Shown here in pieces: positions 2,082 to 23,747 of a DNA stretch of 62,586 nt. Location of the stretch: the NCBI GenBank assembly GCA_031554075.1, contig JAVBKJ010000011.1, positions 1 to 62,586 of the forward strand. The letters are read 5' to 3'. A program made the translations under genes and the position numbers. Every line of letters begins with the position of its first letter. Within the stretch, counting starts at the first letter, position 1. Below the pieces are notes generated by a model that did not search any database, was not told the origin of the DNA, and saw nothing but the letters and a program-made list of their open reading frames with translations. Source of the DNA: Oscillospiraceae bacterium. Its GTDB lineage: Bacteria; Bacillota; Clostridia; Oscillospirales; UBA929.

Positions 2082-2138
2082 ATCCTCGTAATGCGCCAGA
2101 CGTTTCCATCTGGTGCTATTACGAGGATATCGTTTTTT
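2082..2138. terminator. Long interrupted hairpin downstream of the giant SLH protein gene (terminator-like)
   Basis: ATCCTCGTAAT ... ATTACGAGGAT (11 bp) with an inner CCAGA/TCTGG stem. A T-run (TTTTTT) follows on the plus side; the T tract on the minus side is weaker. Confidence 0.4.
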
Positions 2139-2169: not shown

Positions 2170-5100
2170 TCAGTTGCTGTAGGCTAGCCTATTGGTAATC
2201 TTTTGCTCCCATGTCGCAAAGTATTCCTTGGCGCGCCCTAAAATTGATTTTGTGGATTCCACGGTCGTTACAAAAGCGGACTTTAGTGTCACGGCGATTG
2301 TCTTTTTCCACGTTTCGCGTGCACCAGTCTTTTCAAATTCGTGACCATTGGCGGCTTCTGCAATTTCATAGTACACCGCATCTTTTTTGGTCAAGTCGTG
2401 GAAGGCTTTCAGCCCATTGGTATTGGTGTTGACAAATGCTGTGTCAGCATTTCGACCCAACATGCTGTTGACAATGATGACGGCTTCAGCGCGGGTTACC
2501 ATGCGTTCAGGCTTAAAGCTGCCGTCATTGTTGATGGGGAACCAACCAAACCCAGACACCTTTTGAATGCTGTTGTATGCCCAATGTGTGGTCGCCACAT
2601 CTGTAAAGGTTCGCGTGCCTAGTGTTGTCGCGGTGGCAAAGCGCTCGCAAATGGCCGCAAATTCAGCACGAGAAATATTTCTATTTGGCTCAAACTTACC
2701 ATTGTTGCCGACTAAAATGCCAAGGCTTGCCAGCACTTCTACATTCTTTTTGTACCAAGCGTTATCTGGCACATCTGTAAAATGATTCGTAATGGTCACG
2801 TTTTGATTGTTAAGCAGGCGATAGAAGATGGCAGCCGCCTCAGCGCGCGTGATGTTCTTGGTGGCGTTTACGTTACCGTGATTATCGCCCAAGATATACA
2901 CGAGATGATCCTTTGTATTGAGCAATGTTGACACCCCCGATTTTTCAGGGTACGCCACAAACACAGGAGTCACCAGATAGCTACCCTTTATCGCGGGGAA
3001 GAAGCTGTATTGATTGTTGCCATCGCTTGTGTAGGTGACAGACGTTCCATTAGGGTCAACCACGGTTAACTCGCGCAAGTAGTAGCCGTCGTCTGGCTTG
3101 ACTGTCACCGTTACTTTTTGCCCAATCATAATGACTGAAGGGGTGACACTAATCGTACCACTTGTTGTGTTAGGGTCGAGCTTTATGATCGCGTCAGCGG
3201 GTGAAATTGTATCGCTACCACCAGAGGAGGGTGTTGGGGTTGGTGGCGTTGGTGGTACAGTATTAGAATAGGCTAGGGCATAGGTTGAGAACGTTTTGGT
3301 GTAAATCGTAATAATATCCTGCTCAAAGTCAATCACGATTTTTTCGCCTGCACCATTAGCTGTTGCGGATAGCACATCACTTGTATAAATCGTGCCGTTA
3401 AAGTGACTGCGAATGACACTATAGGCCGCTTTGCCCTTTAGGTTCTCAGGCAGCCATATGGTAGCTTGCACTAACGATGGCAAACTATCTAGCGTTTTGG
3501 CTGGTTGTTTCACACCATTAGCTGTGATAGTAAGCAGTGCTTTTAGGTCAAGATATTGACCCACTGTAAAGCCTGTGGCCACATTGTTGGTGATAACTGT
3601 CTTGTCGGCTGTCAAAATACTTTCACTGGGTGCATCTGATACCATAAATTTCAGCTCAGCTGAACCGTTGTTTTTTACTAACGTTTGCTCGGTAGGACTT
3701 AACCCGTTGAGCAGAGCGTTCATCTGCTCATCCAGCTTGCCAACGACAACGTCAACGCCGCCAATAACTTCGAGCTTCGTGTTTAAGAAATAATCGGGAA
3801 TCGTGGCGTTGTCGGTGTATTCACCGCCTGTTACGGTGATAACGCGCGTGACGACATGCCCATCGGTCGTTGTTATCACAATGTTGTAGCTGCCAGGCGG
3901 TACGGCGGTAAATTCATAATCACCACTACCGTTTGTCGCCGTTGGTGCCACTATTGTCTCATCGCCGCGCTTTAGCTCAACCGTTGCGCCGACAATTGCA
4001 ATCGGGGTGGGCGTTGTGCTGTCTGTTACATGACCGCTAATGCTAGAACTATTAAGCCATTTAGGTTGCAGTGTCACGTTGCCATTTGGCATCGTATACA
4101 CACCGCCGCTTGGATACGTGTGTGTGCCATCTGTCCAACCACCGAATACCTTGCCAGCAGGAGGTGTCAAAACGCTGGCAGGTGGCAACTGGAAGGTGTA
4201 CCCAGGGGCGTGCGCTAGCTCGGTTGGCGCTGTGCCGATAAAGCTACCGCCAACACCTGGGCTAAAGGTGACTGTGCCCGTTGTCGTCGTCGCGGGTGTT
4301 GCTGTCGTTGCTGTTGTCGTAGGACCAACCACGACAGTCTTCGAGGGGTCAGTGTTGGGTACACGGACAGCTACTTCGTATTCCTTACCAGCCACTAGCC
4401 CAGGGAAGGTCAGATCAGTGCTGCCACTGCCTGTTTTCCATTCACCGACTGGTTTCCCTGTTATGGGGTCGATAATAGCGTACTCGTACGTGGGATTTGT
4501 GGGGTTCACAGTAATACTATTGGTGGTCGTTCCCTTTACGTCAGCATGGGACAAGGGTAACGTTGGGGTAACAATGGATACACCCGGTTTAGCGGGTAAT
4601 GAGGGGTCGGCGGTATTTGTGCCTGTTGGTACTTCAATGACTTTATAGGTTTTACCGGGGTCTAAGCCTGTAAAAGTTAGGGAATCGCCTTTGTCATCAT
4701 TGTTGCCGTCTGTTGAGGTTTGCCAGCCGTTTGTGCCGCCAGCAGTCGTAACGATGGCTCCAGTTTCATCCACCACGGCGTATATATATCCCTCATTTGT
4801 GGGATTCACGGTGATACTTGTCTTACTGCCTGTGATCACTGCACCCGTTACAAGCGGGAATTTTGTGACAGCTGGCTTTAGCGCACTACCGTCTGTGGTG
4901 GGAATGTCTCGATAGTCTACCTTAGGGATGGTCACCGTTGCGTCTGTAATCTTAGGTCTATCTACGACCACATAATCCTTGCCGGGGAGCAACGGCGAAA
5001 ATGTGATTGCGCCGCCCGCTGGATTGGTAATCCACTGTCCGTCTATGACATTCCCTGTGTCTGGGTCAACCACTGCGTAATCATAGCTTGGATTCGTTGG

Positions 5101-8100
5101 ACTAATGGTGATGCTCTTATCAGTCGTGCTTTCCACTGTGACGGGGAGTTGCGTGGCAGGGGTCACAATGCGCACGCCGCCATCTGGCTTGATGTCACCA
5201 ACACCAGTAGGTTGGGTAGCTTTATGTTCTTCTGTAACAACACGATAGATATGGTTAGGGTCGAGCGGACCAAAGGTCATATCGCCATTAGTCCCTACAT
5301 GCCATGCCGCACCATCTGTGCTGATGATTTTGCCTGTCGTTTCGTCCACGATAGCATAGTCGTAGTCACTATCTGTGGGGCTAACAGTGATGTAGGTTTT
5401 GTCAGCAGGGTAGGGTGTACCATTGCCCATGCCAGCCTTGACATCGACAAAGGGGGTGACAACCGATATGCCCGGGAGTGCATACAGTGCCTCGTTATCC
5501 CCTGTTGCAATTTCGCGGGCGACAACAATGTACTCCTTGCCAGGCAGTAAATTTGGAAACTTTACTTCGCTGGGGGCAGTTGTGTCTGACAGCCACTCCG
5601 AGCCAGTGTTAACAATCTTACCTGTGTCGGGGTCGATAATGGCGTACTCAAAGTCTTTATTGGCTGGCTTGATTTCAATAAAGGCTTTTGACGAATCGCT
5701 AGGGTCTAGCCCCTTGCTAATATCGGTCACCCGAGGGGGCGACACAGGTGCAATAACCACCGTACCTGTTGGGTTTGTGATAGGTGAGGTGGGGTGTGGG
5801 TCTGCCTTAGGCACAGTAATCACCGTGTACTCACCGCCTGGTACAACTGGCGTAAACGTTATCGAGCCACCTGAAACGTTTGTTTGCCAGCCGCCAGCGC
5901 CGCCAGCAGAAGTGACAATGGTACCGTTCTTATCCACTAACGCGTAGTCGAGATTTGGACTGGTACGTTCAATGGTAATGCTGGCAGTATCGTCTTCTGT
6001 CATAGGTGTGTTCTTTGTGTTAATCGCGGCGGTGAATGTCATTCGAATCTCATCAATAGTCGCTCTGCAAATGTCTAAGACATCCAACAGGTCGCCGTAT
6101 TTGGCTGTGCCAGGGACTAGTGCAGCGGCATCTGTCTTTGCCTTAGCAATGGCAGCCTCGATGAGAGTCCATTCCTCTGGGGTAAAGTCAGCTTGATTCA
6201 GCTCGGATTTCATGCCATCAAGCACGCCAGCATAATCAAGTCTGGGGTCGCCGTTTGTGTCATTTACACTAAATGTGTAATCTCCAATGGTGATAACTGG
6301 TGCTGGGTTGGCGTTTTGCTTGTGTTCGATTGTGACGTCTGTGCGATAGTCGCCACCAACAACACGATCACCGCTGTAAATTTCAATGTCACGCCCTGGG
6401 ATGACTTGTGTGGGGTCGATTGTGACATTATGTACCACGTAAATAGGGTGAGTATTGTCTGCTTTTTTGGCAGCGTCGTCAACGGTGGCATACCCAAAGG
6501 TATGCTTAACGTCTGCGTCAGGCTCAACCATAAAGCCAATACTTGTGCTATTGGAGGCTATCAATTTGTTGTTAGTTACGTCCTGTACTAGGGTGGTATT
6601 GGTGTTGACAATTTTGACACGCCCAAAACTGTCCGAAGCGTCCTTATTTGCATCGCCGTCATTGTATATGACAACAGGATTATTGCCAAAGCCAGTGCCA
6701 AGATCTACATTAAAGTATCCGCTTTTGATCTTTACCGTCATGTCTATGGGGTGACCTGCATCTAACTTGATTTTATCTGGAATTATCGCCTTTGAGCCAT
6801 CAATTTTCAATGTGCCGTGATTATCAACTGCAATCGCAGCTGTATTGCCAGTGACAATTTTGGTTTGCTCTAATGTGACAGTGCCCAAATTGTCAATGAC
6901 ATCGCCAGCTTTACCATTGCCGTTTAGATTCACGTTGCTTACTGTCAAGCTGCCGCCAGCGACCACATGAATCATGTCGCCCCCGTCAGCTCTCACATTT
7001 TTGAGTGTTGAACCATTAACGCTGGTAAGCGTTGCCGCTTTAGCAGGTAACGTAAGCACTTTTGTAATGTCAACGTCCGCTAACAGCTTGATGACTAAGG
7101 GGTCAGGCGAGGCAAATAACTCCGCCATTGTCTTCCCATTGTTACTCGCCGTATCATCAAAGCTGTCAAACTCATATTTTACGTCATTTGCCGTGATTTC
7201 AATTGCTTTTTTGGGCAAAGGGGTCGCCGTATAGGTTTTTCCTATGGTTGGGATAGCGGTGGAAGCGTTCACGAAGGTACTGCCGCCATCACTGCTCCAT
7301 CCCATACCTGCGCCTGGGTTTGGCAGTGTACCAAAGGTAGTCGTACCTGTGGTTACAAACTCAATGGGCATGACACCAAAGGTATGCGTAACCTTGTCGC
7401 CCAGTTTCAAATACGTACCATCCGTCAACACGCCTTTAGTAGAGGGTAATATGGTAAAATCAGCTTTATCGGGTGGTGTGGTGTTGGTGCTAGACACCAA
7501 GTTTTGCCCATTGGTAGAGCTGCCAGAGGTCGTAATGGTAACAGGCTTATTAATATCCCCTGCCACGTTGATACGACTGGTGGGATTTGTGATATCGACA
7601 TGCAAGTCGTTTACCGTGGCGTCAATGGTAATCTTAGCGCCAGCGGTAAGCGTCGCATTGGGCGTTGTCTTGTCTTCAAAATCAATATCGGTTAGCGTTA
7701 CGGTTACATCACCAGTGGCTTTGATAGATTCAATTGTATGTCCATCGCCGTCAATCGTGATTGACTTATTGATTACGGTTGTCGTGGCGTCGCTTACATC
7801 GGCTAACAACGTTATTGTTTCGCCGACTTTGGCAGCCGTAATCGCGGCATCCAACGAAGTGTAAATTGTACTTCCAATTTTAGCAATAGGAGGGGCATAC
7901 GTTGTAAACTCATATCCGGGGAAGTCAGTTTTGTTAGCGTCAAAACTGCCATCTATAAACTGCGCAATGACTTTATACGTTGTGCCGGGCTTCAACCCTG
8001 CAAAGGTGAGGTCACTGGTGCTGCCTTGCTGCCAGCCTCCCGCCGATATAGTGCCACTGGGTTGCTCAACAAACGCAAACTTAAATGTGTTATCATCAGC

Positions 8101-10053
8101 ATCTGTTGGCTTCAAAGTGGCAGTCACTGATTTGTTATCTGGCAGTAAGACCTGAGTGACTTTATCTGGGTTCACTTGCTTATAGAAGATAATATCAGGG
8201 GTAGATTGTAGAATTACTACATTGTTTCTCTCATTGACAAATTTGGCAAAATCGGTGCTATCGATGGTATAGTCAGCCGCTGGCTTGGCAAAAATGTTTT
8301 TATGCTTACCATTATTTGTGCTGAATGTAATATCGCTTACTAAAGCTGATTTAATTGTCAGATAGGGGTTGCCTGCACCACCTGCGGTTGCTGTTGCTGT
8401 GTTTTCCAAATAGACATTGCTAACAGTTTTGCCCGCAGTGTCCAATGTCCAATTCGGTCCTGTCGGGGCGGTAACGCCTGTGTAGTTATTGCTAATATCT
8501 GTGGTAGCGCCCACCAAAGCGGTGAGCGTGCCTGTGGTTACGCCTGCGTTATTGAGATACAGACCGCCGCCGTTTGTGGCTGCACCGTTGTCTTTAATCG
8601 ATATAATTGTCGTATCCAGCGTAGCAGTGTTTATTATTGTTGCTTTCATAGCCACGCCGCCGCCATTAGGTGCATAGTTTTTTGTAATTGTTGCTGTTTT
8701 GCCAGCACCAACGCTCACAGACCCATTGGCAATATATATGCCGCCACCCATGTCTGTCGCTTTGTTCTGGGACAGCGTGAAGTTTGCTTTATCCAAAAGT
8801 AGTATCCCATGAAGCCCCAACTTGCCTACGCCTATACCACCCCCGTTTGTGGCGGAGTTGTTGCGTATAGTATCTGTTTGTAATGTAAGGGTACAATTGT
8901 TGAAGAAAATACCGCCGCCAGTGACTGCTGTATTGTTTTCAATCGTAACACCGTCTGGTATGGTGATATTCCTGCGAGAACTAAAGCCACCACCTTCTCC
9001 GCCAGTGTTACCCGAAATTATGACGCCTGTCTCAATTGTGACATCAGGAGTGTTTATGCTTATACCGCCAGCACCTACAGTGGCAGTATTCCCTATAATC
9101 TTTGTACCGTTACCAATTTTTGCATATGTAGGGTCATTGCCGTTACCAACTTTGATACCACCAGCATCCTTACCAGAATTATTACGGATTGTGGCGCCGT
9201 TGCAGTATAAGTAGGCTGGGGCTTTATTAGGTACGGAAGACATGCTTATTCCGCCTATGCCATCTTTTGCCGTATTATTTTGTATAATGGTGTTAGCATC
9301 CATGTAAAGTGTAGTCCCTATTGACCCAGATAGCGCAGAACCATCGTAAACATCAGTAGCAAGGGCGTTATCCTGCAGTATCGCACCCTGCAAGCGTAGC
9401 GTAGACCCACTTACTATTCTTACAAGTGTACTTTTAGCAGGCGTGGAAACACCCACCTCGTTCATACCGCTTATTATGATGTCTTTGAAGGTAATGTTAG
9501 GGGTCAAATTATCATAGCCTACAAGAATCATTTGACTTACATTCGAATTGAATGTTGAGTGTTTTTTCACAATAATATTGTGTCCGCCATCCCACACTTC
9601 GTCTTCTTGAAGATATATTGGGTCTTCTACATTGACTGATGTGGCTTTAACGATGTAAATAGTGCCGCCAGTAGAACCAAGTGCCGCCTTTGCCGCAGCG
9701 AAGGTACCTGCAGCATTCGCTATGGATTTTCCATCTTTTGTACCATTTCCGCTTTGTGACAAATACGCCACGCCACTACCAATCGTAAAGCCTGGTGTGT
9801 CCAAGGCAAACGTTGTAAGCATCGGCTCTGGCGCCCCTGTGGCTTCAGTGCTAAACGAAGTTTCGGGGGTTAAGGTAGTATCACTGCTTAGTGAGGTTTC
9901 ACTGCCCATCGAGCCGCCCGCCGTCTCGTCAAACTGCGCAAATGCAAACAAGGGTACTGTAAATAAGAATGCCAATATTAGTGCGGAAATGCGCCCTTTG
10001 TGAAGATTTAGTTTTTGCCGAAGCGCCAAGTGTTTGGGATTGTAACGTTTCAT
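2170..10053 (-). CDS. Giant SLH-anchored cell-surface protein (2,627 aa): signal peptide, parallel beta-helix with GGxI/GGGI repeats, about 7 FN3/Ig-like repeats, Listeria-Bacteroides-type repeat, CarboxypepD_reg-like domain, 3 C-terminal SLH domains
   Basis: N-terminal signal peptide (ALILAFLFTVPLFAFAQ). Repeated NGGGIY/TGGGIF/GAGGIS motifs. Recurring SITVNPTN..YEYAIIDP..G.....LTF.GL.PGK.Y modules. GYTF...GW...Y..........L.PKW repeat. SLH signatures FTDVPDNAWY..., FTDVATTHWAY..., ...ITRAEAAAIFYRLL at the C-terminus. GGAGGG RBS. Confidence 0.85.
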   Translation of the reverse strand: MKRYNPKHLALRQKLNLHKGRISALILAFLFTVPLFAFAQFDETAGGSMGSETSLSSDTTLTPETSFSTEATGAPEPMLTTFALDTPGFTIGSGVAYLSQSGNGTKDGKSIANAAGTFAAAKAALGSTGGTIYIVKATSVNVEDPIYLQEDEVWDGGHNIIVKKHSTFNSNVSQMILVGYDNLTPNITFKDIIISGMNEVGVSTPAKSTLVRIVSGSTLRLQGAILQDNALATDVYDGSALSGSIGTTLYMDANTIIQNNTAKDGIGGISMSSVPNKAPAYLYCNGATIRNNSGKDAGGIKVGNGNDPTYAKIGNGTKIIGNTATVGAGGISINTPDVTIETGVIISGNTGGEGGGFSSRRNITIPDGVTIENNTAVTGGGIFFNNCTLTLQTDTIRNNSATNGGGIGVGKLGLHGILLLDKANFTLSQNKATDMGGGIYIANGSVSVGAGKTATITKNYAPNGGGVAMKATIINTATLDTTIISIKDNGAATNGGGLYLNNAGVTTGTLTALVGATTDISNNYTGVTAPTGPNWTLDTAGKTVSNVYLENTATATAGGAGNPYLTIKSALVSDITFSTNNGKHKNIFAKPAADYTIDSTDFAKFVNERNNVVILQSTPDIIFYKQVNPDKVTQVLLPDNKSVTATLKPTDADDNTFKFAFVEQPSGTISAGGWQQGSTSDLTFAGLKPGTTYKVIAQFIDGSFDANKTDFPGYEFTTYAPPIAKIGSTIYTSLDAAITAAKVGETITLLADVSDATTTVINKSITIDGDGHTIESIKATGDVTVTLTDIDFEDKTTPNATLTAGAKITIDATVNDLHVDITNPTSRINVAGDINKPVTITTSGSSTNGQNLVSSTNTTPPDKADFTILPSTKGVLTDGTYLKLGDKVTHTFGVMPIEFVTTGTTTFGTLPNPGAGMGWSSDGGSTFVNASTAIPTIGKTYTATPLPKKAIEITANDVKYEFDSFDDTASNNGKTMAELFASPDPLVIKLLADVDITKVLTLPAKAATLTSVNGSTLKNVRADGGDMIHVVAGGSLTVSNVNLNGNGKAGDVIDNLGTVTLEQTKIVTGNTAAIAVDNHGTLKIDGSKAIIPDKIKLDAGHPIDMTVKIKSGYFNVDLGTGFGNNPVVIYNDGDANKDASDSFGRVKIVNTNTTLVQDVTNNKLIASNSTSIGFMVEPDADVKHTFGYATVDDAAKKADNTHPIYVVHNVTIDPTQVIPGRDIEIYSGDRVVGGDYRTDVTIEHKQNANPAPVITIGDYTFSVNDTNGDPRLDYAGVLDGMKSELNQADFTPEEWTLIEAAIAKAKTDAAALVPGTAKYGDLLDVLDICRATIDEIRMTFTAAINTKNTPMTEDDTASITIERTSPNLDYALVDKNGTIVTSAGGAGGWQTNVSGGSITFTPVVPGGEYTVITVPKADPHPTSPITNPTGTVVIAPVSPPRVTDISKGLDPSDSSKAFIEIKPANKDFEYAIIDPDTGKIVNTGSEWLSDTTAPSEVKFPNLLPGKEYIVVAREIATGDNEALYALPGISVVTPFVDVKAGMGNGTPYPADKTYITVSPTDSDYDYAIVDETTGKIISTDGAAWHVGTNGDMTFGPLDPNHIYRVVTEEHKATQPTGVGDIKPDGGVRIVTPATQLPVTVESTTDKSITISPTNPSYDYAVVDPDTGNVIDGQWITNPAGGAITFSPLLPGKDYVVVDRPKITDATVTIPKVDYRDIPTTDGSALKPAVTKFPLVTGAVITGSKTSITVNPTNEGYIYAVVDETGAIVTTAGGTNGWQTSTDGNNDDKGDSLTFTGLDPGKTYKVIEVPTGTNTADPSLPAKPGVSIVTPTLPLSHADVKGTTTNSITVNPTNPTYEYAIIDPITGKPVGEWKTGSGSTDLTFPGLVAGKEYEVAVRVPNTDPSKTVVVGPTTTATTATPATTTTGTVTFSPGVGGSFIGTAPTELAHAPGYTFQLPPASVLTPPAGKVFGGWTDGTHTYPSGGVYTMPNGNVTLQPKWLNSSSISGHVTDSTTPTPIAIVGATVELKRGDETIVAPTATNGSGDYEFTAVPPGSYNIVITTTDGHVVTRVITVTGGEYTDNATIPDYFLNTKLEVIGGVDVVVGKLDEQMNALLNGLSPTEQTLVKNNGSAELKFMVSDAPSESILTADKTVITNNVATGFTVGQYLDLKALLTITANGVKQPAKTLDSLPSLVQATIWLPENLKGKAAYSVIRSHFNGTIYTSDVLSATANGAGEKIVIDFEQDIITIYTKTFSTYALAYSNTVPPTPPTPTPSSGGSDTISPADAIIKLDPNTTSGTISVTPSVIMIGQKVTVTVKPDDGYYLRELTVVDPNGTSVTYTSDGNNQYSFFPAIKGSYLVTPVFVAYPEKSGVSTLLNTKDHLVYILGDNHGNVNATKNITRAEAAAIFYRLLNNQNVTITNHFTDVPDNAWYKKNVEVLASLGILVGNNGKFEPNRNISRAEFAAICERFATATTLGTRTFTDVATTHWAYNSIQKVSGFGWFPINNDGSFKPERMVTRAEAVIIVNSMLGRNADTAFVNTNTNGLKAFHDLTKKDAVYYEIAEAANGHEFEKTGARETWKKTIAVTLKSAFVTTVESTKSILGRAKEYFATWEQKITNRLAYSN

Positions 10054-10131
10054 AGTAAGTCCCTCCTATAGATGCTTATTTTGTATAGTACAGACATTTG
10101 TTGCGGGGGTCGGCTAGGATGTTGAAAATGA

Positions 10132-10172
10132 GCTTAATTCGCAAGACGGACGTACCGCCTTGCGAATTAAGC
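10132..10172 (-). terminator. 14-bp-stem hairpin between the two giant genes (weak terminator or attenuator)
   Basis: GCTTAATTCGCAAG-13 nt-CTTGCGAATTAAGC. On the minus strand it is followed by TCATTTTCAAC, a short T tract. Confidence 0.4.
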
Positions 10173-10187
10173 ATGTTAGGAATTGGC

Positions 10188-13100: not shown

Positions 13101-16100
13101 ATCACTGTAAGTCAGTTTTACGCTCATGCCAGCCAACGCGAGTGCGTCTCCTTGAGTATAACTCATAAGGCTAGGGTCAGTCAAGACTTGAATAGAAGAA
13201 ACTGCTAAACTACCCGTTTTTGGGAAAGTGTACGTGACGGTCATTGTGTTGGCGGCAATGCCAACATTTGTCACCGTTGCGCCAGCCGCTTGCAGATTTA
13301 CTGTTGCGTTGGCTGTGCCTGCAAAGGTGTAGCCTGCATTTGCCTTGAGTGTGGCGGTGATGGAATACACCTTATCGGGGGCAAACTTTCCGTCGGCTGT
13401 CATGATATAATCGGTCGAGCCGCTAACGTTCCAAACAAAGTTTGTGACAGTGAAATGCCCGCTGTTAATGAGTACTTGTGCGGCTGTGGTGGGTGTGACA
13501 CCGATGGTGGGTTTTGTGATGCCCGTAAGCACAGCAGTGGTGATAACGTCTGGCAACACAGATAGATTGCCAGTGGTGTCCTGCCCGCCAGCAGGAGAAC
13601 CCACGCGTATGGCAGTCAAATGATGTTCCGCGGTTGTCAGTGTTGCGCCTTGGGCAACGCTGACGCCAAGGAGCGGTGAATGATTGTAAAAGTTTGCGTA
13701 GGGTACTCTGTTTTCAACTGTGCCGTCGTTATAGGTAATATTAACGGTTAATCCTGTTAAATCGAGCGGTTCGCCCTCAATATAGTTCATTTTCAAGGGC
13801 TGTGTTGCGATTACCAAGTTGTTAATCTTACGAATTGCCGTCATGGGAAAGGTGTAGGTAACTTGGATTGTGTTTCCGTCTGTCCCAGGGGTGGTGTTGG
13901 TTACGACACCGTTAAGACCATTAACCGTGCCGACACAGTCTGGTGAAAAGGCATAGCCAGCGAGTGCCGCAAGGGTGATGGTAACCGTATACACCTTGTC
14001 AGGCATAAACATGCCCGTTGGCGTAAATTCAGCACCAGAGGTACTGCCGCCAACACTCCATACCATTTGCTGTATCGCAAATTTGCCACCATTGCCGTTT
14101 ATCGCGGCTAAGGAGGAGGGCATAGTATTGATGGTAGGGATGCCGATGTCTGTCAGATTCGCGATGCTAATATTGACAGGGACAACGGTGAGATTCAGCG
14201 TATTCGCAGAGCCGCCTGCGGTGGTCGAGACGATAATGGGCTTGCCATTGTGCGTTGCAATCGCCATAACCGTGCCGCCTGCTGGTGCCGCTGTGATTTT
14301 AGGCACATGCGTCGCAAAGGCGGTGTGCGGCACGCCACTTTCCACTGTGCCATCATTGTAGACGAGATTCACGGTCAGACCCGTCAAGTCTAACGTCTCA
14401 CCGACATGATAGGCAAGCTTATCGGGCTGTGATGTAATCGTAAAGCTGTTTGTCGCCAAAGCCCCTGTTTTGGTGAATGACAAGGTTGCTGTGATGGTGT
14501 TGCCGTCTGCTCCTGCCGCCGTGTTTGTGACAACAGCGGTAAGACCATTGATGGTGACAGTCGAGCCGACCACAAAGGTGTAGTTGGGGTTGGCTTTCAA
14601 AGTGGCAACAGCTGTGTAGACAGTGTTTGCCTTAAATTTACCAGCGGGGGTAAAGATATTGGTCGTCGCACCGCCAACCTGCCACTGTAGGTCAAGGATA
14701 GAAAATTTGCCGTTGTTCGTATTCACATCCGTCGCGGCTGCTGGCTGATTGCCCAGAACAGGTGCGGCGACATTGGTTAGTACAGCATTGGCAATGTTGA
14801 TGGAGGTAACTGATAGCGGATTCGTCGTAACCAAACCGCCTAAATTTGTCGTAACGGTAATGGGCTTGCCGTGATGCGTCGCCACTGTGAGGGGTGTTCC
14901 TTGTGAGGGTGAACAGACAATCACAGGATTGTGCGCCGCAAAGGCTGTCGAGGGTATATTTGTTTCCGACGTTCCGTCATTGTAAGTAATATTAACTGAC
15001 AGTCCTGCCAAATTCAGCGTAGCACCTGCGGCATAGGTCAAGGTGGTCGGCTGTTGCGCAAGTGTCATGGTGGACACCGCCAAGGGAGCTGTCTCGGGGA
15101 AGGCAAGCGACACGACAACGGTATTACGTTCAACACCTGGTGTCACGGCAGACACGTAAGCGTCTTGACCATTAATGGTAGCTTTCATGCCAGGGGTGAA
15201 GGAATATGTAGCGTCAGCCTTGAGTACCACATCGACGGCGTATTTTGTCGAGGCTCTAAATTTCCCAGCAGGTGTCAATACGGGCGAAGCTGGCGCATCT
15301 GCTGCCAAACGCCACACCATACTCTGCACTGCAAATTTTCCGCCGTTTATGTTTACCACGCCTTGCGTGGCAGGCGTAGCACCGACGACAGGCGCAGGGA
15401 TACTTGTTAATGCAACTGTTGTGATATCATTTAACACTACCTCGAGGTTGGCGGTGTTCGCAGAGCCACCGATGGCAGAACTCACGGTGACAGGCTTACC
15501 GTTGTGCGTCGCAATGGTAAGCGTTGTACCATGTGCAGGGGTTGTGGTAATCACTGGCACGTGAGACGCAAAAGAGTTGTAGGGTACAGTATTTTCAGTC
15601 GTACCGTCATTGTATATAAGATTCACAGCCAAACCAGTTAAGTCTAGTTTTTGCCCTGTTATGTAGCTTAACTTGGTGGGTTGCGAAGCGATGGTCAAGC
15701 TTGTAATCGCCCGCGCCCCTGTTTTAGGGAACGTAAAGGCGACGCTAATACTGTTGCCGTCCACACCCGGGCTGACATTGGTAATGATGGCTGTCTGTCC
15801 GTTAATGGTGGCGGCACTGCCAACGACAAAGGACGCACCAGCGTTTGCCTTAATTGTTGCAACAGCGGTGTACACGGTATCAGCCTTAAAGGTAGCATTA
15901 GGTGTCAAAATGTTGGTGGTGGCACCATTTACCTGCCACGTTAGGTTTTGTATGACAAAGTTGCCGCCATTAGTGTTGACAGAGGTGTAGGTAACGGGCG
16001 CAACACCCAGCACGGGCGCTGTTATCCCTGTCAGGTTGGCGGTGAGGATACTTGTTGGTCCGACTGCTAACGCACCTGTATAGAGTGTGCCGCCTGCCGC

Positions 16101-17678
16101 AGTGGTTATTTTAATGGTCTTACCATTGTGCGTTGCGGCGTTTAGTAGCGTATCGTTTGCTAAATCGGTATAGATGGCAGGCACATTACTGGCAAACGCA
16201 CTATACGGTACGTTGCTGTCAGTACTGCCGTCGTTGTAACTAATGTTCACTTTTAGTGCCGATAAATCTAGTGCTTCCCCTTGCTTATAGGTAAGCTTCG
16301 GTTGCTGCACAATGCTAAAGCCCGTGACCGTCTTTGCCGCAGTTTTGGGGAAGGTAAAGGAAACGGCCATTCTATTGCGGTCTTTACCAGGTTCTAAGAG
16401 AGAAACAACGGCTGTCTGCCCATTAATAGTGGCGGTACTGCCCACCACAAAGGTCGCTCCAACGTTTGCTGCAACCCCCACTACGGCTGTATAAACTGTA
16501 TCCGCCTTAAATTTACCGTTCGGCGTCAGTGCATTAGTGGTGGAGTCGTCTACTCTCCACTGCAGGGCGTAAGTCGAATATGTACCACCGTTTGTGTTGA
16601 CGACAGCGTGGGTAATTGGTGTTGCACCCATCACTGGCGCAGTAACATTGGTAAGGGTAACATGTGTAATGTTTGCTATGGCAGGCTTTACACTTAAGTT
16701 GCCGACTGTTACTATCTTGCCAGAGACCGACACAGTCAACGCCGCACCGTTGTGACCCGTGGTCAACCCTGTACCATGACTGTAATTCACTGAAATAACG
16801 GGGTTGTGTGAGGCAAAGGAACTATACGGTATATTACTCTCTGTCGTGCCATCCGTATATGTTATGGTAGCACTCAAGCCAGACAGGTTCAGTGCTTGCC
16901 CCACTGTGTAGCTTAGGTTGGGGTTACCTACAATGGTTATTTGAGACGCTACCCGTTCGGCAGGCTTTACACTTAAGTTGCCAACCGTGACCGTCTTACC
17001 AGAGACCGACACAGTCAACGCCGCACCGTTGTGACCCGTGGTCAACCCTGTACCATGACCGTAATTCACTGAAATAACGGGGTTGTGCGAAGCAAATGAG
17101 CTGTAGGGTATGTTGCTCTCTGTCGCGCCATCTGTATACATAATGGTGGCACTCAAACCAGAGAGATTCAGTGGTTGCCCCGCCGTGTAGCTTAGGTTTG
17201 GCTGCCCAGAAATTGAAATATTGTAAGCAGTGCGAACAAGCTGTCCCGTAGCAGGGAAAGTAATCGCAAAATCGGCTAATGCAAGGAGATTGGCTTGGTA
17301 GCGTCTTCCTTCTATTCCATTAATAAACCCTCGTAAATATGGGCTGAATATATTGGAGTTATTTCTGGAAGCAGCAAGGATTTTGACAGTATACACTGTG
17401 TCAGCATTAAACTTCTCTCCACTAAAATAAGGGCCTTGTTCCCCACCAACAAACCAATCAACGTTGTTAACGAAATATTTATCTGTGTCATCGCCTGACG
17501 TTTGCTGAGCACCAGAAACTCTGAACGGTTTTGCACCTGCTACAGGCGCCGGAACATTAAAGTATACTGCTGAAACTAATGCCCCATTCATTACATAAGA
17601 CGCTTGTGCCTCGGGCATGGGCATCAGTCCGCATAGTAACAGTATCGCTAAAGCAACAGATATAATTCTCTTTTGCAT
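10188..17678 (-). CDS. Giant secreted modular protein (2,496 aa): signal peptide plus 11 'A' modules (~115 aa) interleaved with 13 bacterial Ig-like (Big_3-type) 'B' modules (~93 aa); no recognisable wall or membrane anchor
   Basis: Signal peptide MQKRIISVALAILLLCGLMPMPEAQA. B modules match I..QP.KL.Y..G..LDL.GL.V...YNDGT.E..VPY..FA.H.P.I. A modules match VTAPV.G..P.......NGG.F......W.V.G.....TP.GKFKA.TVYTA...LKA..GYTF........ING......N..PG.DGNTI.V..TFPKT. The protein ends ...GNTSILGNFSFT with no LPXTG, SLH or TM segment. AAGGAG RBS. Confidence 0.85.
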   Translation of the reverse strand: MQKRIISVALAILLLCGLMPMPEAQASYVMNGALVSAVYFNVPAPVAGAKPFRVSGAQQTSGDDTDKYFVNNVDWFVGGEQGPYFSGEKFNADTVYTVKILAASRNNSNIFSPYLRGFINGIEGRRYQANLLALADFAITFPATGQLVRTAYNISISGQPNLSYTAGQPLNLSGLSATIMYTDGATESNIPYSSFASHNPVISVNYGHGTGLTTGHNGAALTVSVSGKTVTVGNLSVKPAERVASQITIVGNPNLSYTVGQALNLSGLSATITYTDGTTESNIPYSSFASHNPVISVNYSHGTGLTTGHNGAALTVSVSGKIVTVGNLSVKPAIANITHVTLTNVTAPVMGATPITHAVVNTNGGTYSTYALQWRVDDSTTNALTPNGKFKADTVYTAVVGVAANVGATFVVGSTATINGQTAVVSLLEPGKDRNRMAVSFTFPKTAAKTVTGFSIVQQPKLTYKQGEALDLSALKVNISYNDGSTDSNVPYSAFASNVPAIYTDLANDTLLNAATHNGKTIKITTAAGGTLYTGALAVGPTSILTANLTGITAPVLGVAPVTYTSVNTNGGNFVIQNLTWQVNGATTNILTPNATFKADTVYTAVATIKANAGASFVVGSAATINGQTAIITNVSPGVDGNSISVAFTFPKTGARAITSLTIASQPTKLSYITGQKLDLTGLAVNLIYNDGTTENTVPYNSFASHVPVITTTPAHGTTLTIATHNGKPVTVSSAIGGSANTANLEVVLNDITTVALTSIPAPVVGATPATQGVVNINGGKFAVQSMVWRLAADAPASPVLTPAGKFRASTKYAVDVVLKADATYSFTPGMKATINGQDAYVSAVTPGVERNTVVVSLAFPETAPLAVSTMTLAQQPTTLTYAAGATLNLAGLSVNITYNDGTSETNIPSTAFAAHNPVIVCSPSQGTPLTVATHHGKPITVTTNLGGLVTTNPLSVTSINIANAVLTNVAAPVLGNQPAAATDVNTNNGKFSILDLQWQVGGATTNIFTPAGKFKANTVYTAVATLKANPNYTFVVGSTVTINGLTAVVTNTAAGADGNTITATLSFTKTGALATNSFTITSQPDKLAYHVGETLDLTGLTVNLVYNDGTVESGVPHTAFATHVPKITAAPAGGTVMAIATHNGKPIIVSTTAGGSANTLNLTVVPVNISIANLTDIGIPTINTMPSSLAAINGNGGKFAIQQMVWSVGGSTSGAEFTPTGMFMPDKVYTVTITLAALAGYAFSPDCVGTVNGLNGVVTNTTPGTDGNTIQVTYTFPMTAIRKINNLVIATQPLKMNYIEGEPLDLTGLTVNITYNDGTVENRVPYANFYNHSPLLGVSVAQGATLTTAEHHLTAIRVGSPAGGQDTTGNLSVLPDVITTAVLTGITKPTIGVTPTTAAQVLINSGHFTVTNFVWNVSGSTDYIMTADGKFAPDKVYSITATLKANAGYTFAGTANATVNLQAAGATVTNVGIAANTMTVTYTFPKTGSLAVSSIQVLTDPSLMSYTQGDALALAGMSVKLTYSDNATEIVYASDFDTHTPQIRVTPSNGTLLTIADNNKQALRVTTASGGVATSITKLIVKPAKIAAVTATLPAPVKGNTPATSGVVVVGNSTYVATDVTWTVGGSQTNIFTPTGAFKAGTAYTAVITLKAVSGYTFKNGCTGKVNTQNANNVGNLTPNVAENELTLTYTFPATVGVALTNFAVITPPTTMVYTQSATLNLAGLTVSLTYNDGTTKTVPYADLALHGITPSVAHGTILSNATHNGTTLTLTCLGTTIPVGMLTVNANLIMTAAATNVTAPTIGGTPITAPSIMTAGQYTAESIVWSIGADTNAATIFANGKFKANTTYDVTITLKALNNYAFAAACTGKINGLFVSVTNTAPNTDGNVITLKYSFPPTGSRVAASITVANQPTKMAYVTGNQLKLGGLKVDITYNDGSVEHNVPYAAFATHNPTVYVSPTQNTVLSAAAHHNKPIVVTCGTASATTTSLILDFKPITDVRVTGVVAPVTSGTPALTYNSSADGVLSPVSLEWSVAGNTNAADIFTATGKFKPNTNYTAKVTVKAGTAYTFAGLCQGFINGNVAYTTNPTPNTERNTMTLSYIFPQTAPLTVASIAVDTQPTLAYFEMDALQLSGLVVRVTYSNGDTALVPFSQFSQHEPAITASPTHGYNLGILQNGNPITLHCGTAIATTGAMVITPKPVTPPTVNVTSFTLYTNPKLIYEVGQPLDYTTLAARFTMSDGSQQIIPYANFGANGITVTPAEGTLIDMSHHNTRVILSYNGYTVHTNRITVTTPPPALIDITTANITGIRQPTASFKAPAAGDLSGDGGNGHYSISDIVWSSIGGTLSSGNPFLGATSYTAEITLVADSGYTFPTSFTTSILGISTSVANSNPSTDGNTIKVSVQFPVSIYVGGVALVSGLNLTTLGPLNLKDLVITVNYSGGSPETLTYDELVALGATFSHPDGTVIDYTHGGLSFNMTLGGNTSILGNFSFT
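16681..17238 (-). repeat. Two tandem 279-bp copies (93 codons each) encoding the first two B modules
   Basis: Copies 16681-16959 and 16960-17238 align without gaps and share a 61-nt perfectly identical core (ccagagaccgacacagtcaacgccgcaccgttgtgacccgtggtcaaccctgtaccatgac). By eye, identity is roughly 85-90% over the first ~230 nt. Confidence 0.85.
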
Positions 17679-17763
17679 AAAATAAAACTCCTTAAAATGT
17701 CAATATGTATTAATTTAGCATCCGAAAACGATAGCTGTTGCTGTTAGGATACGGTATTACCAG

Positions 17764-17940
17764 TTATTTCTGGTTTGTTTCCTTAGTGTCCATGGCTAGC
17801 AAACGTTGTTCGAGATTCATAGGCTCTTGTGATTGATGCAGAAAAAAATCACACGCAGATCTTGTGCTTTTTGTGGCCGTTATCTTTGCCAAGGATGCCA
17901 TCTTTCTTGTGAAAAAATTGCCTTTTTTGTTAGTGTTCAT
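17764..17940 (-). CDS. agrD: AgrD-type autoinducing-peptide precursor (58 aa; not in the supplied ORF track)
   Basis: Hand translation: MNTNKKGNFFTRKMASLAKITATKSTRSACDFFLHQSQEPMNLEQRLLAMDTKETNQK. AAGGAG RBS (17951-17956) lies 10 nt before the ATG. The ORF sits immediately after and overlaps agrB by 11 nt. Cys, a 5-residue ring candidate (CDFFL) and Pro at Cys+10 match S. aureus (CDFIMDEVEVP) and clostridial AgrD. An alternative start at Met14 gives 45 aa. Confidence 0.75.
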   Translation of the reverse strand: MNTNKKGNFFTRKMASLAKITATKSTRSACDFFLHQSQEPMNLEQRLLAMDTKETNQK

Positions 17941-18529
17941 TTTGTGTTTTCTCCTTATATAATGTAGTTAGTACAGCAAATGCCATACTTCCGCAAACGG
18001 ACAACATGGATAAGAGTATGGCGGTAAAGATGCGCGAGGGACAAAAAAACGTGCCGACGGTACAGCCCACTGCAAATGTAAAAGCCACAATAATGCTTTT
18101 TAGTTTCAGTGTGCGTTTTAACGTCGGCTTTAGGTACTTATTGACATGCGCCACGGGGGCGAGGGCAAGGACTGTCAACAGCGTAATGCCACTGATGATA
18201 ACAGATAGCATTCTGTAGCTTTCTTGTGGCAGCCATTGCAATAGTAAAAGGCTTACTGTAAGGAGGCAGGCAAAGGCGGTGATACATCCAGCATGTGTCT
18301 GCGCATGATGTCCGCCCGTAAAGCCGCGAAACAACGCAAACGCGAAAGTAAACACCACGCCCTCCCAAAACATTCCAAAACATAGGGAAATCAGCAAGCT
18401 TAGCAAACAATTAAATAGGGTGGATACAATTGTTTCACAAGCGTAAGTATAAATGTCGTCATCCTCTTGCGCGATGATGCCTTGCCTTATAAAAACAGAT
18501 GCTATCCGTTTCGCCAAGGTGTGAATCAT
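17930..18529 (-). CDS. agrB: AgrB-family accessory gene regulator protein (AIP-processing membrane peptidase)
   Basis: Multi-TM protein carrying the family motif FRGFTGGHHA. I prefer the ATG at 18529 (MIHTLAKRIA...) preceded by GGGGTGA. The ORF track extends to a TTG at 18589. Confidence 0.85.
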   Translation of the reverse strand: MIHTLAKRIASVFIRQGIIAQEDDDIYTYACETIVSTLFNCLLSLLISLCFGMFWEGVVFTFAFALFRGFTGGHHAQTHAGCITAFACLLTVSLLLLQWLPQESYRMLSVIISGITLLTVLALAPVAHVNKYLKPTLKRTLKLKSIIVAFTFAVGCTVGTFFCPSRIFTAILLSMLSVCGSMAFAVLTTLYKEKTQNEH

Positions 18530-18597
18530 TTGTATCACCCCAGGGCTAAGAATAGCATCTGTTATGTATATTTTCAAGTGGCTATGCAAAATTGACG

Positions 18598-19920
18598 TTA
18601 ATCATGCAAAATTGGAATGCGCGGAATCGAAAATAAAAGACGAAATACATTTTCATCAAACTCAAAGCTCAGTTCGCCCCCTAGCGAACGAGCGGTTGCC
18701 TGCATACTGATCAGTCCTAAACCGTGAGAATCCTTATCATTTTTCAGAGTGTGTAAGAAAGTGCCATCATATTGAGGTCTTTCTCCGATTGTGTTCTCTA
18801 TTACCGTCAACATATTGGTTTTATACATGGACACACGCATATGTATAAACCGTTCTTTGTCACTTCGCATACACGCCTCAATCGCGTTATCTAGCGCGTT
18901 GCCAAATAAAGCACAAATGTCAACTGTGAGATCAGACATTTGGGGAGGCACTTGAATGTCCCAATGGCACTGGATATGATTCTTTTTGGCGAGATTTCGT
19001 TTTGCGGATAACAGCGCGTCGAGCATCGGGTTATCGGTTAAAACCACAGGCGTGACATCGTGTTGCCAATCGGTAAGCTTCGCCAAACTATCAGACAGTT
19101 CGTCAAATTGTCCCATTTCGCAAAGCGACCGAAACATATGCACGTGTTGCTTAAAATCATGCGACATTTGCCGTATTTGCGCCCGATTTTCTGTCAGCTG
19201 CAAAATATAATCACGCTGTGCGGCAACCTGTGCATCTAATAAGGCTAATCGTTTGTCTTTTTCACTGCGGCGAATAAGCTCCTCCATGATAGAGAAAACC
19301 GCCATATTGATTAAGACTAGCCCGAAAATGCAAAACAATGTTGTGATAGTTTGGGGGCTATAGTCTGACAACGCGTCTATTGTAAATTGCAGTGCTAAGA
19401 AAATTGAAAAAATAGGTAGCATCCATAGCGGAATCCAAAGTCTGGAACGCATGACCTCCATGCTCCCGACACGCAATCTCATTATGATTTTGATTAATAG
19501 AAATTTGAGCAAATCCATGATAATCAGCGCAGCAAACCTATATTTTGTAAAATCTGCCACCTGCTGAAATGTAACTGTTTGCGAAATGGATATGATAACG
19601 GCCGCCAGAAGCTCCGCGCCAATCGCACATAGAAGATATATAAAAGCGGACAGCACAGCCCATAGGACAGTACACTGCCGTGTCGTAAGACAGACTATAA
19701 ACGTAAAGAGGATGGTGCTTGATAAAATAATCAATATGCTGTCTTTTAGAAAGTAGCTGATGAGAAATTTTGCGATACAGACACAGAGAAAGAGTGTCAA
19801 CACGAGTGGCTTGCGCAGTGTACGACGTTCCTTAAAAAAGGCACTAGCAAACATGAAAATTAAGATAGTTTCTATCAAGGCGCTCAGTGCTTCGATGATA
19901 GCCCAAAGCGAAATGTTCAT
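18598..19920 (-). CDS. agrC: AgrC-like (HPK10) membrane sensor histidine kinase
   Basis: About 6 N-terminal TM helices, H-box SHDFKQHVHMF, N-box FGNALDNAIEA, G-box DSHGLGLISM. Confidence 0.8.
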   Translation of the reverse strand: MNISLWAIIEALSALIETILIFMFASAFFKERRTLRKPLVLTLFLCVCIAKFLISYFLKDSILIILSSTILFTFIVCLTTRQCTVLWAVLSAFIYLLCAIGAELLAAVIISISQTVTFQQVADFTKYRFAALIIMDLLKFLLIKIIMRLRVGSMEVMRSRLWIPLWMLPIFSIFLALQFTIDALSDYSPQTITTLFCIFGLVLINMAVFSIMEELIRRSEKDKRLALLDAQVAAQRDYILQLTENRAQIRQMSHDFKQHVHMFRSLCEMGQFDELSDSLAKLTDWQHDVTPVVLTDNPMLDALLSAKRNLAKKNHIQCHWDIQVPPQMSDLTVDICALFGNALDNAIEACMRSDKERFIHMRVSMYKTNMLTVIENTIGERPQYDGTFLHTLKNDKDSHGLGLISMQATARSLGGELSFEFDENVFRLLFSIPRIPILHD

Positions 19921-20633
19921 GATAGCCCCTCCCGTCTAAAGCCCATATAGGCAGCTTTGACAAGCTTTTGATACTTTCGACTAATGGGGATTTTTGTGCC
20001 ATCTAGCAGGGACACATGGTCGTCGAACTGGATAAACACATGCGCCAAATTAACAATATATGAATTATGAGTTCGCACAAACCCGTGATGTACCAACAGC
20101 GGTTCTTCGATATCCAACTTGCCCATAAACTCGTATTTTCTGTCAATTGTGTTGACATGTATGTAGTGCTTGACACTTTCGATAAATTGTATGTCTGCCA
20201 TTGGTAAGGCGAGTTGACCGCCGCCCTTTAACTTTATGACGTATGTTTGGGTCTTTCTGCGGGTGAGCATGGTGACAATTCTGTCCATCGTGGGTTCAAA
20301 CCGTTCCCTAGTGACTGGCTTTACTAAGTAGTCAGACGCCATCACTGTAAAAGCCTGCAGCATCGCTTCTTCCATAAACGTGACGAAGATTATATGTACG
20401 CGCATGTCTAGCATTCGAATCTTTTCAGCTAAGGCAAACCCATTCATGTCGGGCATCGACACATCTAAAAACAGTATGTCAAAGTGGCGACTTGGATAGT
20501 CTAGCAATAGTTTGGCGGCGGTGTCATATTCATTTACATCGAAGTTGAGCATATGTTGTTTTTCGTACTGGGCAATGAGTTTTCTCTGACGTTCGATATG
20601 AATTTTCTCATCGTCACAAATCGCTATTCGCAT
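19917..20633 (-). CDS. agrA: AgrA-like response regulator (REC plus LytTR DNA-binding domain)
   Basis: MRIAICDDE...DILFLDVSMPDMNG receiver domain. C-terminal LytTR pattern ...FVRTHNSYIVNLAHV...IPISRKY. 4-nt ATGA overlap with the kinase gene. GGGAGG RBS. Confidence 0.85.
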   Translation of the reverse strand: MRIAICDDEKIHIERQRKLIAQYEKQHMLNFDVNEYDTAAKLLLDYPSRHFDILFLDVSMPDMNGFALAEKIRMLDMRVHIIFVTFMEEAMLQAFTVMASDYLVKPVTRERFEPTMDRIVTMLTRRKTQTYVIKLKGGGQLALPMADIQFIESVKHYIHVNTIDRKYEFMGKLDIEEPLLVHHGFVRTHNSYIVNLAHVFIQFDDHVSLLDGTKIPISRKYQKLVKAAYMGFRREGLS

Positions 20634-20647
20634 GAATTGCCTCCCAT

Positions 20648-20764
20648 CTGGATACTCTGTCAGATTATATCATAATGGAAAATATAATCAATAGCAAGTG
20701 TAACAGACAAAATAGGCATAGAAGTAAGGCGCATGGATGTAAAACGGGCGGTATGGTGAAGGGG
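20648..20764. repeat. 117-bp direct repeat, copy 1 (promoter module upstream of agrA)
   Basis: Aligns without gaps to 23592-23708. About 6 mismatches in the first 80 nt, a ~10-nt divergent patch, then a conserved distal block (cgggcggtatggt[g/a]aagggg). Confidence 0.9.
20664..20691 (-). promoter_or_regulatory. Sigma-A-type promoter for the agr operon (TTGATT-16 nt-TATAAT with TGn extended -10)
   Basis: Minus strand reads ATTGATTatattttccattaTGATATAATctgaca. The predicted start is about 25 nt before the agrA ATG. Confidence 0.6.
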
Positions 20765-20820
20765 GGAATTGATTGTGGAATTTAAGTCGGGGGTGATGGT
20801 GGCTGTGGAGGAATAATGGT

Positions 20821-20860
20821 AAGAATGAAAAAGGCACTCTACCGATTGACGTAGAGTGCC
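20821..20860 (-). terminator. Rho-independent terminator of the 793-aa gene (T tracts on both sides)
   Basis: GGCACTCTAC-8 nt-GTAGAGTGCC, followed by TTTTTCATTCTT on the minus strand and by ACTTTTGTTT on the plus strand. Confidence 0.8.
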
Positions 20861-20888
20861 ACTTTTGTTTGCAAGCATATATGTAACT

Positions 20889-23270: not shown

Positions 23271-23591
23271 ATTAAAGTATCCTCCCAGTATTTAAAATTT
23301 AAGCGATGCAACGCCCCCCTTGAGGTTAAACTAATATCTGCAAAGCAAACAGAGAACTTCAGTGCTATCACACATGAGATTACACGCAAAAACATCTAAA
23401 GCGACCACACAACCTCATAAAATCCGAAAAACATCTACTCCGCTCTCTCGTGAACACCCAATATCTAAACTGACCTCTCGTCAACCACCCACATCCAATC
23501 AGTGCTGTCACACTCCCAACTGCCGCACTCGACTTATTCCCAACACCCATATTTCCACGATTTTTCACATTGACTTCTCACATAGAAACAC

Positions 23592-23708: not shown

Positions 23709-23711
23709 TAG

Positions 23712-23747
23712 ATAAAAAATAAGACACCTTACGAAACGTAGGGTGTC
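23712..23747 (-). terminator. Rho-independent terminator of the flavoprotein gene
   Basis: GACACCTTACG-AAA-CGTAGGGTGTC, followed on the minus strand by TTATTTTTTAT. Confidence 0.8.

Follow-up and report, generated by a model that had tools for sequence, protein, structure and literature searches.

The stretch of DNA analysed here, contig JAVBKJ010000011.1 of an Oscillospiraceae bacterium (62,586 nt in full; hereafter the window, on whose numbering all coordinates are given), raises the question of whether an agr-type quorum-sensing cassette may be wired directly to genes for giant surface proteins. Six minus-strand open reading frames (ORFs), agrA, agrC, agrB, agrD and the giant genes G1 and G2, follow one another in the window (Table 1). 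An earlier note on this DNA, made from its letters alone, had listed the same six ORFs and coordinates, and these are borne out, as are its junctions, namely the 4-nt overlap of agrA and agrC (19917-19920), the 11-nt overlap of agrB and agrD (17930-17940) and the 85-nt gap between agrD and G1 (17679-17763). Judged by its sequence, the cassette is a genuine agr-type system, complete and highly divergent, with its genes in an order that is already known, whereas its link to the giant genes is best described as a plausible juxtaposition that is unconserved and unproven. The interpretation favoured here, for which the case is evenly poised, is that the locus comprises two nested units, in which an autoinduced agrBD-G1 transcript would be followed by attenuated read-through to G2.

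Table 1. Positions of the genes and putative control elements of the locus (window numbering), and of AgrD-like peptides in related loci (numbering of each locus).
Feature	Position	Strand	Details
Terminator-like bidirectional hairpin	20833-20860	.	10-bp stem, 6 GC pairs, then TTTTTCATTC on minus strand
Sigma-70-type promoter-like site, agrA-agrC	20664-20691	-	TTGATT-16-TATAAT, extended -10 TG, 10/12
agrA-like response regulator, 238 aa	19917-20633	-	Response_reg 63.9 bits, LytTR 62.4 bits
agrC-like histidine kinase, 440 aa	18598-19920	-	GHKL/HPK10-type; HATPase_c_5 72.5 bits
Exact direct repeat CAATTTTGCAT-N9-CAATTTTGCAT	18584-18614	-	11 nt, period 20; candidate LytTR-dimer site
Promoter-like site, agrB-agrD and beyond	18549-18577	-	TTGAAA-17-TATTCT with TG, 9/12
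agrB, 199 aa from ATG	17930-18529	-	AgrB PF04647, 113.7 bits vs cutoff 23
agrD, 58 aa, autoinducing-peptide precursor	17764-17940	-	TIGR04223, 29.7 bits vs cutoff 19
agrD-G1 spacer, 85 nt	17679-17763	-	No terminator, direct repeat or consensus promoter; strong ribosome-binding site AAGGAG before G1
G1, 2,496 aa, secreted, signal peptide, no wall anchor	10188-17678	-	Big_3 (PF07523) E = 1.8e-37
G1-G2 hairpin, perfect 18-bp stem	10132-10172	-	Followed by TCATTTTC (poor T-run)
G2, 2,627 aa, SLH-anchored, signal peptide	2170-10053	-	SLH PF00395 74.2 bits, fn3, CarboxypepD_reg
Hairpin after G2	2082-2138	-	Strong, z = -6.34; imperfect U-tract UUAUGUUUGAU
AgrD-like peptide, L001	705-893
AgrD-like peptide, L003	10707-10862
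AgrD-like peptide, L004	10572-10706
AgrD-like peptide, L005	10570-10704
AgrD-like peptide, L007	6927-7106
AgrD-like peptide, L009	10582-10734

The agr-type identity put forward in the note holds, all four components scoring in family tests. The regulator obtains a score of 44.5 against the NCBIfam AgrA equivalog, far under the cutoff of 400, and is therefore described as AgrA-like and not as an AgrA orthologue. The kinase, whose ATG overlaps the agrA stop codon, contains approximately six to seven hydrophobic (transmembrane) segments within residues 1-212 by hydropathy, and its H-box reads SHDFKQH; the HATPase_c_5 domain that it carries is typical of AgrC/ComD-type kinases. AgrB likewise has multiple transmembrane segments by hydropathy, and a PDB search gave no solved relative of it. 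It is predicted to be the membrane peptidase that processes AgrD, its H75 and C82 being invariant in comparison with two homologues, within the motif GGHHAxxHxxC; we take these residues to be the equivalents of H77 and C84 in Staphylococcus aureus. The core of AgrD reads ...RSA-C-DFFL-HQSQEP..., with HQSQEP as the follower, and the pattern [CS]x4[YH][QE]xx[EV]P is common to AgrD and to small ORFs found after agrB in six related loci (Table 1). Since this ring and follower pattern is shared, the ring of the peptide is predicted to be a Cys-Asp-Phe-Phe-Leu thiolactone. The ring of the S. aureus autoinducing peptide (AIP) AIP-I, C-DFIM, is strikingly close to C-DFFL, with a Pro at the same distance. 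In about half of the AgrD-like peptides compared across these divergent loci of Clostridia, Ser (lactone) takes the place of Cys.

The agrC-agrB junction, to which the earlier note had paid no attention, carries a direct repeat and a promoter-like site. The agrB ORF as listed (17930-18589) opens at a TTG located 8 nt past agrC; the ATG at 18529 is preceded by a ribosome-binding site (GGGGTG) and begins the N-terminus MIH(T/S/A)LAKR that is common to AgrB homologues, making it the most likely start and thereby leaving an agrC-agrB spacer of 68 nt. The two copies of the repeat, 18614-18604 and 18594-18584, straddle the agrC stop codon, and the final residues of AgrC are encoded within the distal one. 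Exact direct repeats of at least 11 nt at a period of 15-30 number two in the window, compared with a mean of 0.34 in composition-matched shuffles, and the CAATTTTGCAT pair is the only site in the window to score 22/22, the next independent site reaching 16/22. No other repeat of at least 8/10 at a period of 18-23 was found in any of the locus's four intergenic regions, and a search for further regulator boxes near agrA, G1 and G2 and throughout the window gave none above background. The promoter-like site, a candidate for an autoinduced P2-like promoter, starts 6 nt downstream of the proximal copy, so that repeat and site together present what appears to be the classic arrangement for P2-like promoters activated by LytTR/AgrA regulators, with binding of the regulator to the candidate repeat predicted.

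Similar arrangements can be detected 5′ of agrB in several of the related loci. L007 contains TGTGCCGTTT twice with a period of 21, after a hairpin and T-run that were read as a terminator by eye and received no flag in the terminator scan, and L009 contains ACTWTTCGTAC twice, also with a period of 21, followed by TTAACA-18-TAGAAT with TG. In L004, AAAATATTGT occurs twice with a period of 20, and a weaker, ATCCC-containing pair with the same period was recognized by eye in L003. It is this combination of repeat and promoter layout, with its parallels in related loci, that points to two nested units, one consisting of agrA-agrC and the other autoinduced from agrB onwards, and a single promoter is probably not all that serves the locus.

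Upstream of agrA, the promoter-like site at 20691-20664 is the top-scoring of 42 matches in the region (19 kb scanned). The proposal that one strong promoter serves the locus therefore stands as far as the site itself is concerned; its further claim that this is the sole promoter for six genes does not, because a LytTR-type repeat and promoter-like site precede agrB and a strong hairpin follows G1. No direct repeat (at least 8/10, period 18-23) was found 5′ of agrA, and for that reason the agrA-agrC promoter is probably constitutive and not autoinduced. Three half-site-like sequences upstream of agrA (8/11) were considered as a LytTR site and rejected on account of their spacing of 30-32 nt. 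Instead of a divergent unit, the region 5′ of agrA holds a terminator and, on the same strand as agrA, the end of another gene; the terminator-like hairpin in question (20833-20860) appears to close the upstream 793-aa gene and to mark the 5′ boundary of the agr unit.

Between the signal genes and G1, neither a terminator nor a consensus promoter is detectable, which agrees with the note's view that the former lead directly into the latter. On the minus strand from 18548 to 17248, no terminator-like or promoter-like match was obtained in a scan for terminators and sigma-70-type promoters, the folding of the agrD-G1 spacer is insignificant (z = -0.10), and positions 17679-17830 contain no direct repeat (at least 8/10, period 18-23), the best half-site, at 9/11, being on the wrong strand. 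A weak extended -10-like sequence, TGcTAAATT, can be seen by eye at 17720-17712 and has no statistical meaning. The hexamer TTGACA at 17702-17697 was rejected as part of a G1 promoter, as any matching -10 element would coincide in part with the start codon and leave the ribosome-binding site out. Given that terminator, repeat and consensus promoter are all lacking between agrD and G1, an autoinduced agrBD-G1 transcript is plausible. The related locus L003, unlike this one, has a clear terminator with a 13-bp stem after agrD.

The end of G1 is marked differently. The hairpin between the giant genes had been called weak; its 18-bp stem is in fact perfect, and the 134-nt spacer in which it lies has a minimum free energy of -37.8 kcal/mol (z = -4.97), a stability equalled by none of 200 shuffles, so that only the T-run is poor. 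It is a candidate for a partial terminator or RNA-stabilising element, and the hairpin past G2 is the probable end of the transcription unit. Since the G1-G2 hairpin is strong and both hairpins have poor U-tracts, transcription probably reaches G2 only in part.

The mechanism that these elements suggest would operate as follows. The consensus sigma-A promoter at 20691-20664 would drive agrA-agrC and, there being no terminator after agrC, would allow partial read-through to agrB. AgrB, with His75 and Cys82, would process the 58-aa AgrD to a thiolactone peptide with the ring C-D-F-F-L, which AgrC would sense, leading it to phosphorylate the LytTR regulator. A dimer of the regulator bound to CAATTTTGCAT-N9-CAATTTTGCAT would then activate the weak agrB promoter, generating positive feedback, and the autoinduced transcript would run on through the spacer, with its lack of terminator, promoter consensus or second repeat, and through the 7.5-kb G1 gene, beyond which the 18-bp hairpin would let part of the transcript reach G2. 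At high cell density, the Ig-domain rod of G1 would be released and SLH-anchored G2 displayed, with a presumed role in aggregation, matrix formation or attachment to substrates. In its most specific form, this reading holds that agrB, agrD and G1 share one autoinduced mRNA and that the hairpin meters G2, a direct, RNAIII-free wiring of quorum sensing to surface architecture in a Clostridia-like lineage yet to be cultured, which is put forward tentatively. If read-through occurs, each round of autoinducer synthesis would be tied to the making of a giant secreted protein of the surface or matrix, and the output of agr would be a pair of giant surface proteins and not a regulatory RNA, protease or toxin. 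With its one candidate box and single transcript, the locus would then be a simple setting in which to examine quorum control of adhesion or aggregation in a little-studied, probably anaerobic member of the Bacillota. Of practical value are the predicted C-DFFL thiolactone core and the predicted regulator binding site, both of which are testable.

Several observations count against this nested arrangement. The predicted agrB promoter would leave a leader of just ∼12-13 nt, which renders its exact position doubtful, and the sequence of the repeat is unlike the S. aureus AgrA consensus, as is to be expected for a divergent LytTR domain. The hairpin between G1 and G2 is rated as strong as the one past G2 (z = -4.97 and -6.34, respectively). 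The remaining points concern the association of the cassette with the giant genes, and favour the main rival explanation, an unlikely one in our estimation, in which the adjacency is coincidental. The agr genes would then constitute a self-contained module, possibly acquired horizontally along with the atypical genes upstream, and G1 and G2 would be transcribed from one or more agr-independent promoters of their own, located within or close to the 85-nt spacer and between G1 and G2, with any read-through being incidental.

The association is conserved in no related locus. The earlier note had suggested looking in relatives for an agr cassette beside giant genes, and none was found, as a giant, SLH or Big_3 neighbour is present at 0/9 related agr loci and agr genes occur within 10 kb at 0/7 of the G1-like loci. 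Because all of the relatives are distant, the sequences compared being at most 44% identical, this test of conservation is weak. A search of 5.8 billion proteins with AgrB returned three, including the query, the nearest being 44% identical, and the closest homologues lie on termite-gut contigs of 1.2-1.7 kb. On the 1.7-kb contig L001, which carries the nearest agrBD (44%), a 161-aa GyrI-like gene comes after the pair and no agrC comes before it. Seven further AgrB relatives (22-32% identity) were found in genomes of Lachnospiraceae, Acutalibacteraceae and other Clostridia, where the gene 3′ of agrD is NusG-like, a serine dehydratase or a sigma-54 activator. The genes that follow agrD in the relatives are thus unrelated, of housekeeping or regulatory type. 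A metagenome scan with an AgrB alignment gave no relatives, and a search with concatenated AgrA and AgrC returned AgrC itself and one weak match only. The nearest G1-like proteins in the seven loci are at most 33-39% identical; a scan with a three-module G1 alignment, used because a nine-module alignment was too divergent, detected two loci, both without agr genes. All of the window proteins that were checked are singletons at 90% identity, the lineage being poorly sampled.

Codon usage also separates the cassette from the giant genes, in that the correlation of relative synonymous codon usage (RSCU) with housekeeping genes of the window is 0.30-0.52 for agrA, agrC and agrB and 0.10 for the 793-aa gene upstream, versus 0.71-0.76 for G1 and G2. 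This contrast is compatible with a cassette that landed beside pre-existing giant genes. At third codon positions, however, the agr genes have a GC content of 0.46-0.51, a range that overlaps with the 0.475-0.51 of G1 and G2, and with RSCU differing and third-position GC overlapping, a foreign origin of the cassette is no more than suggested. A functional, Agr-controlled promoter is moreover contained within the 88-bp spacer between agrCA and CA_C0082 in Clostridium acetobutylicum (PMC10301443), for which reason the short agrD-G1 gap is no proof of co-transcription. Coincidental adjacency is opposed by the lack of any consensus promoter-like site in the spacer, agrD or agrB at the threshold of the scan, and by the missing terminator after agrD, where L003 has one. 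Furthermore, genes on the same strand that are 85 nt apart with no terminator between them are more commonly co-transcribed than not.

A second alternative is a six-gene operon transcribed solely from the promoter at 20691-20664, in which regulator, kinase, signal genes and giants would rise and fall together. It gains from that promoter being the best sigma-70 match of the region with a terminator before it, from the absence of a canonical terminator between agrA and the end of G1, and from the agrA/agrC and agrB/agrD overlaps, which indicate tight coupling inside each pair. It is nevertheless quite improbable, as the repeat and promoter-like site before agrB, paralleled in related loci, favour an internal regulated promoter, as such an operon would be devoid of the typical agr autoinduction loop, with no repeat upstream of agrA, and as a perfect 18-bp hairpin stands after G1 (z = -4.97). 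Very improbable, finally, is that G1 is an Agr-controlled effector with a regulator-dependent promoter of its own in the 85-nt spacer, off the agrBD transcript, for which there are precedents in gelE after fsrABDC and CA_C0082 after agrCA (PMC10301443, 10.1101/2022.04.06.487426) and the weak -10-like sequence in the spacer, and against which stand the lack of a direct repeat in 17679-17830 and the wrong strand of its best half-site.

The proteins themselves agree with the earlier description of a modular, anchorless G1 and an SLH-bearing G2, as shown by their Big_3 and SLH domain matches. According to a self-built profile, G1 consists of 12 Big_3-like and 11 unclassified domains of ∼110 aa in strict alternation (∼23 Ig-like domains), and its repeats are old, being 36-45% identical to one another. 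No LPXTG, SLH or other anchor was found in domain and motif searches. An AlphaFold2 model of one two-domain module comprises two beta-sandwiches with a predicted local distance difference test (pLDDT) score of 90.7, and Foldseek returned weak matches to Ig-like and cell-surface proteins with this module (best E about 1e-2). The ∼110-aa domain (11 copies, e.g., residues 753-864) has no Pfam model and no PDB sequence match; given a modelled beta-sandwich with pLDDT ∼90 and weak structural neighbours, it may represent an undescribed Ig-like domain family. Two metagenome loci, L012 (3236-19087) and L013 (3287-10879), encode one or two tandem proteins of ∼2,500-2,600 aa with G1-like modules and IG_AIR9/SCAB-Ig matches, have genes for a CarboxypepD_reg protein and an S24/S26 peptidase-like protein ahead of these, and may constitute a different conserved context of giant Ig-repeat proteins.

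G2 combines Gly-rich and FN3/Ig-like repeats with a CarboxypepD_reg domain and, at its C-terminus, an SLH region, in which residues 2387-2528 match the solved SLH domain of Bacillus anthracis Sap (3pyw; E = 1.2e-10). Its signal peptide, recognized by eye, is a hydrophobic N-terminal segment ending in AFAQ. The Gly-rich region is a possible beta-helix, to go by an N-x-x-x-x-GGG(I/V/F) pattern seen by eye; a single-sequence AlphaFold model of the N-terminal part was unusable (pLDDT 49.9). Threonine accounts for 14-15% of each of the giant proteins. Approximately 9 kb upstream of their genes (26497-28389, minus strand) is a gene for a membrane glycosyltransferase of the PMT family (protein O-mannosyltransferase-like) that also carries an F5/8 type C domain, and this enzyme might glycosylate the Thr-rich G1 and G2.

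Immediately upstream of the agr cassette, the 793-aa ORF (20889-23270, minus strand) has no Pfam or NCBIfam match. Its residues 37-248 match BnzB, a PADLOC model for a candidate component of anti-phage defence, with E = 3.9e-44; it contains a Gly-rich transmembrane block at residues ∼600-690, and its RSCU correlation of 0.10 is very atypical. Across 18001-24342, where agr genes lie together with the BnzB-like gene and one for an FMN reductase, the GC content is 0.42-0.43 compared with ∼0.50 in the flanks and synonymous codon use is atypical, and these features hint at a horizontally acquired segment. An Rfam scan of the window gave no family at gathering score anywhere, a new type of RNA being possible, and Rfam and tRNA searches detected no structured RNA, riboswitch or tRNA in the spacers of the locus.

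The gene order of the cassette, which had been taken to be undescribed, is known from the agr2 system of Clostridioides difficile R20291 (agrACBD; PMC4885068), and an A-C-B-D order is mentioned for Clostridium butyricum (PMC12342839). Among the relatives compared here, the A-C-B order is found in four of the seven distant genome loci (L003, L007, L008, and L009), with agrD after agrB in L003, L007, and L009. C. difficile agr2 shares with the window both the set of four components and their succession along one strand, from regulator and kinase to AgrB and AgrD. It differs from the present locus in that AgrD2 has no Cys (PMC4885068), whereas the Cys of AgrD underlies the thiolactone predicted here, in that the sequences of this locus are very divergent, and in that no giant surface-protein genes have been reported beside agr2. 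The S. aureus agr system is likewise built from AgrB, AgrD, AgrC and AgrA, and its LytTR regulator binds two direct repeats just 5′ of a suboptimal promoter (PMC4227749), a repeat-before-promoter layout like that proposed for agrB. In contrast to S. aureus agrBDCA, which is transcribed from P2, the order here is A-C-B-D and a separate promoter-like site lies upstream of the regulator and kinase genes; the divergent RNAIII transcribed from P3 has no counterpart in the form of a divergent transcript unit or Rfam match, and the candidate box is unrelated in sequence to the AgrA consensus.

Precedents also exist for agr genes that share a transcript with, or are followed by, other genes. In Clostridium perfringens, agrBD were found by reverse transcription PCR to be co-transcribed with non-agr genes (CPE1563-CPE1562-agrB-agrD; PMC2706048), as is proposed here, although the additional genes are small, of unknown function and located upstream of agrBD, and neither a kinase nor a regulator is linked to them. 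The placement of an effector directly 3′ of an agr cassette has been described for Agr-controlled LanM-like genes that follow clostridial agr operons (PMC10301443). One of these, CA_C0082 of C. acetobutylicum, lies ∼88 bp past agrCA and is an Agr-controlled effector (PMC10301443), so that a non-agr gene directly 3′ of the cassette is common to both loci; that effector follows agrCA, has its own promoter in the spacer and belongs to an association conserved in several Clostridium species, whereas no relative shares the association seen here. A literature search brought up no case in which giant SLH/Big_3 surface-protein genes are the adjacent, possibly co-transcribed output of agr. Such an output, as inferred here, would be the only unusual element of the locus.

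In the fsr system of Enterococcus faecalis, gelE-sprE follows fsrABDC on the same strand, with the regulator gene first, the kinase gene last, and proteases as effectors, whose operon has a regulator-dependent promoter of its own. Separate promoters have been documented for fsrA, fsrB, and gelE (10.1101/2022.04.06.487426). The locus described here is similar in having the regulator first with a promoter-like site of its own, a second such site for the signal genes and secreted putative effectors downstream, and differs in that the kinase is second, that neither repeat nor half-site pair precedes G1 or G2, and that giant structural proteins take the place of proteases. As there is no second repeat, control of the giant genes would have to be exerted by read-through. 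The locus may work like fsr, though it is not a member of the fsr type.

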